NCBI RefSeq assembly: GCF_040676755.1
Contig: NZ_JBFAPO010000056.1
Span: 42,988-66,987, forward strand
Length of the DNA: 24,000 nt
From: Dactylosporangium sp. NPDC049525
GTDB taxonomy: Bacteria > Actinomycetota > Actinomycetes > Mycobacteriales > Micromonosporaceae
Direction of reading: 5' to 3'
In this document: positions 5,643-7,801 of the stretch, in pieces
Layout of the letters: each line of letters begins with the position of its first letter
How positions within the stretch are numbered: position 1 is the stretch's first letter
Translations under genes and position numbers: made by a program
The notes under the pieces: generated by a model
Database searches by the model: none
What the model was told of the DNA's origin: nothing
Seen by the model: the letters and a program-made list of their open reading frames with translations, nothing else

Positions 5643-6050
5643 ATGGCGGCGGAGGACCTTGCGGGTCTGCTCGACTCGGTGCAGCGACTGCTCGGCGCGA
5701 CCCAACCCACGGACTCGCCGGATGCGCAGCCGGCGCTGCGGGGGACGGGCACGTCACCGAACGGGCTCATCACCGCGGTCGCGGCGCTCGGCGGCAGGAT
5801 CGAGTCGGTCGCCGTCGACCCGCGTGGCCTGCGGCTGGACAGCCAGACCCTCGGCGAGGAGGTCGCCGCCGCCGTCAACGCGGCGCTGGACGACCTGCGG
5901 GCGCAGGCGAAACTGGCCCCGGAGGCGGTCGACCTGGCCGCGCTGCACACCGAGCTGACCCAGGTCCGCGACGAGTCCGCCCGCCAGTTCACCTCGTTCC
6001 TGGAGTCGATCTCGGCCACCCAGGAGCGGGTCACCGCGGACCGGCGGTAG
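5643..6050 (+). CDS. YbaB/EbfC-like protein, first gene of the toxin cassette
   Basis: ATG at 5643 follows AAAGG. The track start at 5541 adds codons with poor GC3 (cta, gaa, gga, caa, aga, tca, aaa). The core GLITAVAALGGRIESVAVDPRGLRLDSQTLGEEVAAAVNAALDDLRAQ matches the YbaB/EbfC pattern, meaning a strand hairpin followed by a helix ending in A-N-A-A. This is a known accessory gene type next to actinobacterial ESX-type toxins. Confidence 0.65.
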   Translation: MAAEDLAGLLDSVQRLLGATQPTDSPDAQPALRGTGTSPNGLITAVAALGGRIESVAVDPRGLRLDSQTLGEEVAAAVNAALDDLRAQAKLAPEAVDLAALHTELTQVRDESARQFTSFLESISATQERVTADRR

Positions 6051-6053
6051 CCC

Positions 6054-6377
6054 GTGGACCTGCGTATCTCCGTCGAGAGCCTCCGCACCGCCGGCACCGG
6101 CCTGCAGGCGGCCGGCGGCCGCTTCGCGACCGCGCTTGAGCAGTTCCGGGTCGAGCTGACCGGCCACGGCGAGCCGTGGGGCACCGACGACATCGGCTCG
6201 CTCATCGGCGCCGCGCACGCCGAGGTGTCCGACTTCGCCTTCGAGTGTTACGCCGACGCCCGCGACGAGGTCATCGCCAGCGGGGAGGACCTGGTCGGCA
6301 TGGCCGATCGGTATGAGCTGCTGGAGCAGGACAACCTGGCGTTGATGACCGCCATGGACCCGAAGACGGGGACCTGA
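6054..6377 (+). CDS. WXG100-like small helical protein (putative T7SS-associated partner)
   Basis: GTG at 6054 lies 3 nt after the upstream stop. The product is 107 aa and predicted helix-turn-helix, with a central HGEPWGTDDIGSLIG turn motif between two long helices. Confidence 0.6.
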   Translation: MDLRISVESLRTAGTGLQAAGGRFATALEQFRVELTGHGEPWGTDDIGSLIGAAHAEVSDFAFECYADARDEVIASGEDLVGMADRYELLEQDNLALMTAMDPKTGT

Positions 6378-6379
6378 GC

Positions 6380-6874
6380 GTGGGCCTGCAACTGCCGGGG
6401 GAGCTGCGGGCTGTCCTGTCGCTCATCGGGTACGAGTGGCCTCAGGCCGACGAGCAGAAACTGTTCGAGATGGGCCAGGTGTGGACCCGGTTCGCCGGCA
6501 CCATCCAGCACAGCATCGCCGAGGCCGACCCGGTCGCGGCGGCGGTCTGGACGCAGAACGTCGGCGCCGACATCACCGCGTTCCGGGCGTCGTGGGAGCA
6601 CGAGGACGGCCCGTCCAAGGCGCTGCACGACGGTGCGACCGCGGCTCAGCTCGCCGGGCTGGGGCTGATGGTGTGCGGGCTCATCGTGCTGGCGTTGAAG
6701 GTCGCGGTCATCATCCAGCTGGTGATCCTCGCGATCGAGATCGCCCAGGCGATCGCCACGTCGGAGCTGACGTTCGGCGCGTCGCTGCTGGAGATCCCGG
6801 TGTTTCAGCAGCTCACCCGGACCGTCGTCAGCAACCTGCTGATGGAGGCCCTGTTCATGCTCGCCGATGGCTAG
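6380..6874 (+). CDS. Polymorphic-toxin N-terminal trafficking domain (WXG/LXG-like helical domain plus hydrophobic helical segment), encoded without a toxin C-terminus
   Basis: GTG at 6380 lies 2 nt after the upstream stop, and GGGGA lies 9 nt upstream. The N-terminus is MGLQLPGELRAVLSLIGYEWPQADEQKLFEMGQVWTRFAG. It is followed by LAGLGLMVCGLIVLALKVAVIIQLVILAIEIAQAIATSELTFGASLLEIP. From memory this is the conserved N-terminal architecture of large actinobacterial toxins. The ORF ends at TAG 6872-6874. Confidence 0.6.
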   Translation: MGLQLPGELRAVLSLIGYEWPQADEQKLFEMGQVWTRFAGTIQHSIAEADPVAAAVWTQNVGADITAFRASWEHEDGPSKALHDGATAAQLAGLGLMVCGLIVLALKVAVIIQLVILAIEIAQAIATSELTFGASLLEIPVFQQLTRTVVSNLLMEALFMLADG

Positions 6875-7373
6875 CGGCCGGGGCAAGGCCAGCGGCAAGC
6901 TGATCCGCGCGGCGCTGCGCTCCCTGCGCAAGACGAAGAAGCGCCGTCGCGGTCACCCGGACGCGGTGCCGACCCGCCGGGCGGCGCCGCCACGGCAGGC
7001 GTCGCACGCCGCCCGCCGGGAGGCGGACCGGGCGCAGGCCGGTGGGCGCACCAACGGTACCGCCGAGGCGGTCACGACCGCGGACGGCCGGCACACGGTG
7101 TCGACGCAGAGCGGCGCCGGGTATCCGCTGCACCGCCGGGTCGAGGGGACGATCAACACGATGCCGCCCGGCCAGCGGGCAGACTGGCACGGTGAGTGTG
7201 CGCTGCCGCAGGCGCTGTCGCGGATGCTGGACCGGGGCATCGACCCGACCGGTGGTGCGGTCGGGTCGGCGCGGATCCGTGCGCCGGGGCACCGGATGCA
7301 CGGCACGCAGATCCCGCCGTGCCCGAGCTGCGCGCCGCTGATGAGAGAGTTCAACCTGAGGGAGGCGATGTGA
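6867..7373 (+). CDS. Deaminase-like toxin: basic/Pro-rich linker plus a roughly 100-aa core with a zinc-binding H-x-E...P-C-x-x-C signature
   Basis: The ATG at 6867 overlaps the upstream stop (ATGGCTAG). The N-terminus KLIRAALRSLRKTKKRRRG and an Ala/Pro/Arg-rich stretch look like a linker. The core contains W-H-G-E-C-A (His 7188-7190, Glu 7194-7196) and P-C-P-S-C (Cys 7320-7322 and 7329-7331). An immunity-type gene follows with a 4-nt overlap. Confidence 0.5.
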   Translation: MASGRGKASGKLIRAALRSLRKTKKRRRGHPDAVPTRRAAPPRQASHAARREADRAQAGGRTNGTAEAVTTADGRHTVSTQSGAGYPLHRRVEGTINTMPPGQRADWHGECALPQALSRMLDRGIDPTGGAVGSARIRAPGHRMHGTQIPPCPSCAPLMREFNLREAM

Positions 7374-7801
7374 GCGGGGACTGGTCGACGCTGGTGTACA
7401 CGGCGTTGCAGAACGCCGGCTGGCACGACGGGCGGCGGGTGAGCACGGCGGCGTGGGCGGATGCGTTGCGGCCGAGCGGTTTCCTGCCGCACCCGGCGGC
7501 CGAGGCGTTCCTGCTGGAGTTCGGCGGGTTGTCGGTGGACTCCCGCGGGGAGGGCCGGGACGTGGCGAAGATGTCGTTCGACCTGGACCCGACCCTCGCC
7601 GAGGGGCAGAAGGGCTGGTTCGAGAGCCTGGAGGGCGGCACCGCGGGCGGGCTCTACCCAATCGGTGAGGAGCGCGACGGCAACGCGAGCCTCGCCATCG
7701 ACGCGGACGGGATCGTGCACCTGCTGTTCAACCAGCGGCGGGTGCCGCTGGGCCCGGGCCGTCAGGCCCTGGCCTGGCTGATCGAGGGCGTTCGGGACTG
7801 A
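7370..7801 (+). CDS. SUKH-3-like immunity protein
   Basis: The GTG at 7370 overlaps the toxin stop (GTGA), and GGGAGG lies 5 nt upstream. WSTLVYTALQNAGWHDGR...HPAAEAFLLEFGGLSVD...MSFDLDP...GGLYPIGEERDGNASLAIDADGIVHLL matches the SUKH-3 pattern as I remember it: FGGL, f-D-P, P-I-G-E, i-D-x-d-G. The track ORF 7196..7801 is the same frame extended upstream. Confidence 0.65.
   Translation: MSGDWSTLVYTALQNAGWHDGRRVSTAAWADALRPSGFLPHPAAEAFLLEFGGLSVDSRGEGRDVAKMSFDLDPTLAEGQKGWFESLEGGTAGGLYPIGEERDGNASLAIDADGIVHLLFNQRRVPLGPGRQALAWLIEGVRD

Follow-up and report, generated by a model that had tools for sequence, protein, structure and literature searches.

We examined a compact run of five plus-strand genes (g1 to g5) in a 24,000-nucleotide stretch of the genome of Dactylosporangium sp. 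NPDC049525 (NCBI RefSeq assembly GCF_040676755.1, contig NZ_JBFAPO010000056.1, positions 42,988 to 66,987), hereafter the window, which is actinomycete chromosome with a GC content of 74%. The five genes probably form one operon for a polymorphic toxin that acts between bacteria and belongs to the WXG/type VII secretion class, its effector being split into two polypeptides, a carrier (g3) and a cargo toxin (g4). The cassette had been picked out in an original prediction made by a model from the sequence, and the coordinates, gaps and overlaps given there were found to be accurate when the junctions were read: g1 and g2 are separated by 3 nt and g2 and g3 by 2 nt, g3 and g4 overlap by 8 nt (ATGGCTAG), and g4 and g5 overlap by 4 nt (GTGA). 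All five genes are conserved in relatives, and the GC content at third codon positions (GC3) is 0.91-0.95 in each of them; both the coding signal and the conservation are far beyond chance.

The division of the effector into two genes is not a peculiarity of the window. Relatives were collected by a scan of one genome per species, which returned 458 loci; 80 of these, from Micromonosporaceae and Actinomadura, were fetched (they carry handles of the type L001) and their genes were called by our own GC3-based procedure, giving 81 loci together with the window. Most of the 80 loci contain the g1-g2-g3 trio. In 78 of the 81 a gene lies directly after g3, always with a stop codon in between and with a start codon of its own. 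The junction is an 8-nt overlap in 34 loci and mostly a gap of 1-9 nt otherwise, and the frame of the second gene relative to g3 also varies (about 46 loci at +1, 29 at 0 and 3 at +2). A search for g3 homologues gave 563 matches, and all of the 120 listed are 161-179 aa long and carry PF25547 alone; their hosts belong to Micromonospora, Actinoplanes/Paractinoplanes, Asanoa, Longispora, Catenuloplanes, Dactylosporangium and Actinomadura. The covalent fusion of toxin and trafficking domain that defines CpnT-type and Eat-type proteins is found neither here nor in the other loci among the 78, where the toxin gene stands alone, and the split arrangement of the original prediction is real and conserved.

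Fused counterparts of the two proteins do exist. When 1.8 billion representative proteins were searched with a profile, 1383 relatives of g3 were returned, and among the best 150 of these, stand-alone proteins (about 160-167 aa) are mixed with fused ones of either 300-430 aa, which is the size of g3 plus g4, or 1300-1775 aa. In the fused sequences a basic helix such as DIFEKAKGLLKKVESKL comes after the g3-like part. A hidden Markov model (HMM) of the N-terminal leader of g4 gave weak matches in the fused proteins, 8 of 11 of them at residues 168-183 and a ninth at the equivalent point of an N-terminally shorter fused protein. The split thus appears to fall between the trafficking domain and the basic helix.

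While the trio and the leader are constant, what follows the leader differs from locus to locus. A Pfam scan of the 76 short proteins at position 4 assigned EndoU_bacteria in 57 loci, YwqJ-deaminase in four (the window, L001, L048 and L050), XOO_2897 deaminase in three and GH-E HNH nuclease in one, and 11 had no Pfam match; two further loci carry RHS-repeat proteins of 1214 and 1262 aa. The deaminase version of the window is thus a minority type. Common to all cargo classes is a leader of the form G-[KR]-[LIVF]-[MILF]-x-A-A-[LMF]-x-x-[LF]-[KR]-[KR]...R-x-R. The immunity gene co-varies with the toxin type: at position 5 we found SUKH-4 in seven loci, SMI1_KNR4 in five, SUKH-3 in four and SUFU in one, the remainder having no assigned family. 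The gene directly downstream of the toxin gene therefore switches family along with it, as expected of a cognate immunity gene, and a constant trio and leader joined to variable toxins is a polymorphic toxin in the sense of Zhang, Iyer and Aravind, except that constant and variable parts are borne by separate polypeptides. The polymorphism that had been proposed for the cassette was in this way confirmed by the different toxin/immunity pairs that the same trio precedes in other genomes.

The locus in the window is itself a mosaic. Its g3 and its g4 leader are 62-64% and 58-64% identical, respectively, to those of EndoU-type Micromonospora loci, and 55% and 42% identical to those of L048 and L050; for the toxin body (64%) and for g5 (55%), L048 and L050 are the nearest relatives. 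Recombination at the leader/toxin junction would produce such a pattern. Some genomes carry two cassettes (L061/L068; L025/L058), and on contig_16 of Actinomadura sp. 6N118 the cassettes of L061 and L068 lie in opposite orientations within about 10 kb, with a 1262-aa RHS cargo in one and an XOO_2897 deaminase in the other. The Actinomadura loci L031, L036, L056, L059, L060, L074 and L079 have an extra hydrophobic, transmembrane (TM)-like segment before the basic leader of the position-4 protein (at about 6488-7120), and in several of them the YbaB-like gene is duplicated.

The cargo toxin of the window is composed of a basic amphipathic leader (aa 10-28, nt 6894-6950), an Arg/Ala/Pro-rich linker and a deaminase core. 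Its first 29 residues include 12 Lys/Arg and no acidic residue, with the helix-like GKLIRAALRSLRKTKKRRR among them. The core, aa 61-163, matches Pfam YwqJ-deaminase (PF14431) with 31.3 bits (cut-off 25.9), and the motifs HGE (aa 108-110, nt 7188-7196) and PCPSC (aa 151-155, nt 7317-7331) fit the predicted active-site signature of the YwqJ clade ([CH]xE in helix 2, CxxC), a clade tied to type VII secretion system (T7SS) WxG domains and to SUKH3 immunity (PMC3239186). The product of g5 matches Pfam SUKH-3 (PF14433) over its full length with 83.7 bits (cut-off 23), residues 8-140 aligning to positions 4-146 of the 146-position model.

The family assignments that had been made for all five proteins were borne out by profile or fold evidence: four exceed their Pfam cut-offs, and g2, which has no Pfam match (WXG100 included), is supported by its fold and by profile matches to Esx proteins. 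For g1, a homologue of which was found in most of the 80 loci, the Pfam YbaB_DNA_bd score is 29.5 bits (cut-off 25.5). Its family profile matches E. coli YbaB (1pug) at 2e-6, and the PDB matches, which range from 2e-6 to 3e-4, also include H. influenzae YbaB (1j8b) and Rv3716c. Against the NCBIfam nucleoid-protein equivalog TIGR00103 it scores 19.3, below the cut-off of 49.45. Because the Pfam and profile matches pass but the equivalog cut-off is failed, g1 is predicted to be a YbaB-fold paralogue other than the housekeeping nucleoid protein. YbaB-fold proteins of this kind are known beside type VII substrates: EspL, EspH and EspD, accessory proteins of ESX-1, are proposed substrate chaperones (PMC6109436), and in the SigM regulon of M. 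abscessus genes annotated as 'YbaB/EbfC family EspL-like' adjoin ESX substrate genes (PMC13491425).

The g2 protein has the features of the WXG100/EsxAB clan, a helix-turn-helix of about 100 aa with a WxG turn and a YxxxD/E motif. In the family alignment of 60 loci, the mid-length PWG is nearly invariant (W42 in 57 of 60 members, G43 in all 60), and in the YxxxE motif of the second half, Y87-E-L-L-E91, position 91 is D or E in all 60, Tyr87 being kept in 39 and replaced by His in 14. An AlphaFold (AF2) model built from 29 sequences (pLDDT 91) is a two-helix hairpin (helices 7-36 and 46-101) with PWG in the loop. Foldseek's top 35 PDB matches consist throughout of EsxA, EsxB, further WXG100 proteins and PE25, with probabilities of 0.97-1.0 and target TM-scores of 0.6-0.85; the E-values (0.09-0.9) are weak, which is to be expected of so simple a hairpin. 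The profile-sequence matches are also weak, yet all are to Esx proteins. For g3, whose sequence has 100% identity with that of a hypothetical protein from Dactylosporangium sp. NPDC049525, Pfam WXG100_2 (PF25547) was matched with 46.4 bits (cut-off 27), residues 12-141 aligning to positions 13-143 of 150. Its AF2 model (pLDDT 79) is all-helical; it resembles WXG100 proteins (EsxA/B) over the hairpin and also M. abscessus EsxEF, and over its full length it resembles PPE15, PPE41 and PPE4 with TM-scores of about 0.5-0.57. A TM-like hydrophobic stretch (aa 93-127, nt 6656-6760; Kyte-Doolittle 19-mer up to 2.96) lies inside one long helix. Sequence searches of solved structures with g3, g4 and g5 gave no match.

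Table 1. Features of the cassette in the window (positions counted from the first nucleotide of the window).
Feature	Position	Strand	Remarks
Conserved ~45-nt element (CTAGTTTCCTAGG...GACGTGGCCGGGCTCAC), left edge of the present/absent unit	5514-5560	.	Comparison with relatives
Operon 5' leader	5561-5642	+	Kept in the window, L001, L081, L082
Shine-Dalgarno-like GAAAGG	5630-5635	+	Six to seven bases before the g1 ATG
g1: YbaB-fold protein, EspL/EspH/EspD-like candidate chaperone	5643-6050	+	135 aa; Pfam YbaB_DNA_bd
g2: WXG100/PE-like helical hairpin	6054-6377	+	107 aa; PWG nt 6174-6182, YxxxE nt 6312-6326
g3: stand-alone WXG100_2 / CpnT-like N-terminal domain, putative carrier	6380-6874	+	164 aa; TM-like helix
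g4: putative cargo toxin, YwqJ-type deaminase	6867-7373	+	168 aa; leader, linker, deaminase core
g5: putative SUKH-3 immunity protein	7370-7801	+	143 aa; Pfam SUKH-3

The start of g1 was placed at the ATG at 5643, which is kept in relatives together with the GAAAGG upstream of it. A GTG at 5541 would give a longer protein, but the added part has a GC3 of 0.74, lower than the 0.94 of the g1 body, which makes this start unlikely. A promoter scan detected no sigma-70 consensus promoter in the operon leader, and promoter and terminator scans of the spacer and the cassette found nothing. A GAAC-N18-CGTC motif in the leader that resembles extracytoplasmic function (ECF) sigma factor sites was rejected, as the relatives do not conserve it. 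In L001 the leader before g1 (L001:5020-5240) contains an apparent tandem duplication of about 60 nt, with GGACGTGGCCGGGCTCACCCCCGAAACGGCGCC... present twice.

The cassette is accessory, as two close relatives with the same flanking genes are without it. In four close relatives the same deaminase cassette lies beside NmrA-TetR-GH92, with differing genes upstream. The interval from MarR to the cassette is accordingly variable (window 1323-5446; L001:571-5105; L081:4114-7302; L082:2469-2715): it holds a 187-aa protein (p187), a histidine kinase, a LuxR-type regulator and a 91-aa membrane protein in the window, an extra kinase/regulator pair (1040 and 213 aa) in L001, and a dehydrogenase, a protein of no named family and a sigma factor in L081, and in L082 the cassette comes directly after MarR. 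Of the two syntenic relatives without the cassette, L084 (NmrA 87% identical) reads AhpC-MarR-p187, a GAF kinase only, and then NmrA-TetR-GH92-GntR-TPR, with no tblastn trace of g1-g5 remnants, and in L083 (Dactylosporangium sp. NPDC050688) a P450 gene adjoins NmrA. Rather than a syntenic core region with an invariant C-terminal module, the comparison thus revealed cassette-less relatives and variable toxins, and the inserted accessory module of the original prediction stands. Its extent was revised. The ~45-nt element is conserved upstream of g1 in four cassette-bearing relatives with different upstream genes, and about 38 of its 45 nt recur at L084:7879-7919; because the element there abuts the NmrA stop, the unit that is present or absent spans about 5561-7801 and not 5447-7801 as first proposed. 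The element contains a CTAG...CTAG near-palindrome, and it may be an operator or a recombination junction.

Two of the marks of insertion that had been put forward did not hold. The 196-bp spacer thought to be AT-rich has a GC content of 0.679, within the range of the intergenic regions of the window (0.54-0.83), and the cassette itself (0.726) is ordinary beside the window (0.74); a compositional island was therefore rejected. The convergent NmrA stop (7803-7805), only 1 nt from the stop of g5, had been taken to leave no room for a terminator. This tight junction is a local feature, a deletion, as L081 keeps a 63-nt spacer. In that spacer (L081:9750-9812) an inverted repeat, CCCTGG...CCAGGG, forms a possible shared terminator that is lost in the window. 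In Dactylosporangium sp. NBC_01737 (NZ_CP109153.1; L001:7349-7429, minus strand) the NmrA stop is lost and the open reading frame (ORF) runs 25 codons further, antisense into the 3' end of g5, ending in ALFTARLSPGHPRSAGPGPDVPGRAAPAAG before its stop. A TCAC microhomology at the ends of the indel was set aside, as the right-hand junctions of L001 and L081 differ. A plasmid or phage origin was also rejected: there was no phage match, and plasmid records gave a single match, weak and partial, on a Streptomyces replicon of 2.8 Mb.

The neighbours of the cassette in the window are genes for MarR, a histidine kinase, a LuxR-type response regulator, a small membrane protein, NmrA, TetR and a GH92 hydrolase, and further WD40, GntR, TPR and sigma-factor genes, among others. 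Across the family, flanks are kept within genus-level groups, for example a P-type ATPase upstream in 14 Micromonospora species. The WD40-repeat gene that separates GH92 from GntR (window 12594-14489) is missing from L081 and L083 and is reduced to a 42-residue remnant in L084, a second case in which these relatives differ by the presence or absence of a gene. A GC-rich tandem array with units of 5, 10 and 15 nt (925-1241, about 60 CGCCG-like copies) fills the 83% GC intergenic region after MarR, and two other tandem repeats lie at 20133-20291 (52 nt, 3.1 copies, 94% matches) and 23505-23617 (28 nt, 4 copies, 91% matches).

These observations suggest how the cassette may work. The g3 protein would be a PPE/WXG100-like carrier that corresponds to the N-terminal trafficking domain in fused actinobacterial toxins such as CpnT, and g2 would be its WXG100/PE-like partner, supplying the WxG and YxxxE export motifs. 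The YbaB-fold protein g1 would hold the complex in solution, above all the long hydrophobic helix within g3. The cargo, a putative nucleic-acid deaminase, would dock non-covalently on the carrier through its basic amphipathic N-terminal helix of about 20 residues, which would rebuild the architecture of the fused homologues, and the overlapping or nearly abutting g3/g4 junction could couple translation of the two genes and so link the output of carrier and cargo. Inside the producer g5 would neutralise the deaminase, and competitors lacking g5 would be intoxicated. Complex formation, the chaperone role, T7SS dependence, toxicity and immunity are all proposed here from sequence, structural models and gene order.

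For the export route we infer, by analogy with characterized operons, a T7SS of the ESX-4 type whose genes lie elsewhere in the genome. N-terminal domains that are WXG-like are considered strictly T7SS-associated (PMC3482391). Secretion of CpnT needs its YxxxE motif and the co-encoded EsxE and EsxF, and its operon lies far from the ESX loci (PMC8092274); EatA of M. abscessus is a binding partner of two WXG100-like Tap proteins and uses ESX-4 for its export, and tap-toxin-immunity ('eat') loci with toxins of 400-1000 aa occur across Actinomycetota (PMC13444075). Micromonosporales, including M. lupini, carry ESX-4-type clusters (PMC4791881, PMC4182475), and M. lupini also has a protein of the g3 family.

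Several observations weigh against this proposal. As originally predicted, no secretion machinery is encoded nearby: the window holds no EccB/C/D/E, MycP or FtsK-like gene, and there is no T7SS gene among the ten gene families that most often flank the 80 related loci, families which comprise ABC ATPase, P-type ATPase, DUF2786, SSF symporter, urocanase, DUF4153, histidine kinase and unknowns. The hydrophobic 35-residue helix of g3 and the basic N-terminus of g4 could equally mean membrane anchoring. The YwqJ score of g4 passes its cut-off by a modest margin, with no solved structure related to it in sequence. In Micromonospora sicca and M. coerulea (L048:6488-7003 and L050:6488-7003) the toxin reads WHGNC where the window has WHGEC; because these two loci carry Asn in place of the expected catalytic Glu, with their SUKH-3 partners kept, deaminase activity is not guaranteed throughout the family. 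Finally, the likeness between the leader and the helix at the junction of fused proteins comes down to weak HMM matches (independent E-values of 5-17) and a coincidence of position.

The chief alternative is that the cassette is a self-contained export or display device that works without a T7SS, g3 (perhaps with g2) inserting into the producer membrane as a pore or surface anchor to which the g4 leader binds. The TM-like helix of g3, the highly basic N-terminus of g4, the extra N-terminal hydrophobic segment of the position-4 proteins in the Actinomadura loci listed above and the lack of T7SS genes in the window and in the recurrent flanking families would all suit such a device, and precedents are at hand: EsxE-EsxF are reported as membrane channels (PMC7810871), and CpnT's N-terminal domain has also been reported to form a pore or anchor. 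We nevertheless consider it unlikely, since g2 has the canonical WxG and YxxxE motifs of T7SS substrates, the models of g2 and g3 resemble secreted Esx, PE and PPE proteins, and mycobacterial orphan Esx-toxin operons far from ESX loci still need ESX systems (PMC8092274; PMC12635105). Still less probable is that the deaminase acts in the producer itself once SUKH-3 is lost, as part of an intracellular toxin-antitoxin or anti-phage (abortive infection) module in which g1 would be a DNA-binding regulator. Adjacent and overlapping toxin and inhibitor genes, the classical DNA binding of YbaB proteins and the presence or absence of the cassette among relatives would fit this. A known anti-phage defence system was rejected, however, as none of the five proteins matches PADLOC defence models at E<=0.01; g1 falls below the nucleoid-protein equivalog cut-off; the phage and plasmid searches yielded only the weak replicon match mentioned above; and a constant trafficking-type trio with interchangeable toxin/immunity pairs, including RHS proteins of about 1200 aa, is a hallmark of secreted polymorphic toxins and not of toxin-antitoxin systems.

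We also considered whether g3 and g4 could be the two halves of one fused toxin gene, broken by a frameshift or rejoined by programmed recoding. Fused homologues of about the length of g3 plus g4 exist, and the two ORFs of the window overlap by 8 nt in different frames. Against this, the split is kept in 78 of 81 loci from several genera, with own starts, a stop between the genes and all three relative frames; the 120 listed g3 homologues are without exception 161-179 aa; both ORFs have the high GC3 given above; and the arrangement is identical in the four close relatives. Because the split is conserved in all three frames with a stop codon in between and with varied gaps, we exclude a frameshift introduced by sequencing, a pseudogene and a conserved signal for recoding, and we give a broken or recoded fusion hardly any credence. 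A type VII substrate with separate carrier and cargo is, of these explanations, the one we favour.

Among described systems, the closest comparison is the esxF-esxE-cpnT-ift operon of M. tuberculosis (CpnT/TNT), which likewise has small WXG100-type genes upstream, a WXG100_2 domain, a YxxxE motif and an immunity gene downstream, and which is distant from any ESX cluster. It differs in that CpnT is one 846-aa chain with a fused toxin instead of separate carrier and toxin genes, in that two Esx genes lie upstream instead of one WXG-like and one YbaB-fold gene, and in that the toxin is an NAD+ glycohydrolase and not a deaminase; the homology of g3 to CpnT rests on Pfam and UniRef naming. Dactylosporangium is also a monoderm-type actinomycete without a mycomembrane, unlike the host of CpnT. 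The tapA1-tapA2-eatA-eatI locus of M. abscessus and other eat loci (PMC13444075; 10.64898/2026.08.24.746431) share with the cassette WXG100-like partner(s), a helical trafficking module, a toxin and an immunity gene, and also diverse payloads, including HNH/Endo nucleases, and a proposed ESX-4 export (PMC13444075). Eat toxins, in contrast, are single proteins with a fused helical N-terminal domain, which in EatA is reported to cluster with LXG-like domains of Bacillota, and their description includes neither a YbaB-fold gene nor a split of carrier and cargo (PMC13444075). LXG toxins with Lap/DUF3130/DUF3958 targeting factors (T7SSb of Bacillota, such as B. subtilis YwqJ) also combine a helical N-terminal domain with small helical partners into a composite T7SS signal, and YwqJ-family deaminase payloads occur among them; they belong to another phylum and T7SS subtype, have toxin and LXG domain fused and lack a TM-like helix. 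With EspL, EspH and EspD of ESX-1, g1 shares the YbaB fold and a location beside Esx/PE/PPE-like substrates, although its sequence likeness was measured against YbaB itself and the chaperone role of EspL is itself only proposed.

The component families and the pairing of YwqJ, SUKH-3 and WxG are thus already known from comparative genomics (PMC3239186, PMC3482391). What sets the cassette apart is that it lacks the covalent fusion of trafficking domain and toxin seen in cpnT and eat and has, in addition, a YbaB-fold gene and a cargo leader that is conserved. In the literature that could be searched, the coverage of which is incomplete, we came across no account of such a carrier/cargo arrangement, in line with the original prediction, which had not recognised it as characterized. 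The layout is widespread among soil actinomycetes, with 458 loci in species-representative genomes, annotated as hypothetical or domain-named proteins only. The export of antibacterial toxins by actinobacterial ESX-type systems was first demonstrated experimentally in 2026, for single-chain toxins (PMC13444075).

More tentatively, and with somewhat less than even confidence, we propose that the family represents a 'cargo effector' mode of the actinomycete T7SS, in which separate toxins, from 150-aa nucleases and deaminases to 1200-aa RHS proteins, are each recruited by the leader of about 20 residues to the carrier, its WXG partner and a YbaB-fold chaperone. In the type VI secretion system, adaptors recruit separate cargo toxins non-covalently to a carrier, alongside fused 'specialised' versions; the machinery and proteins of that system are unrelated to the cassette, and the likeness is one of analogy, not homology. 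If the cargo mode is true, it would parallel the division between cargo and specialised effectors in type VI secretion, and the leader would be a short transferable export tag. The family would also offer a clean minimal context for testing the proposed chaperone role of YbaB-fold 'EspL-like' proteins. If the leader is indeed the docking signal, it would provide a simple, testable rule for loading cargo on a type VII substrate, it would explain how new toxins can be swapped in by recombination at a fixed junction, and it might serve to steer heterologous proteins into this pathway in actinomycetes that produce antibiotics.

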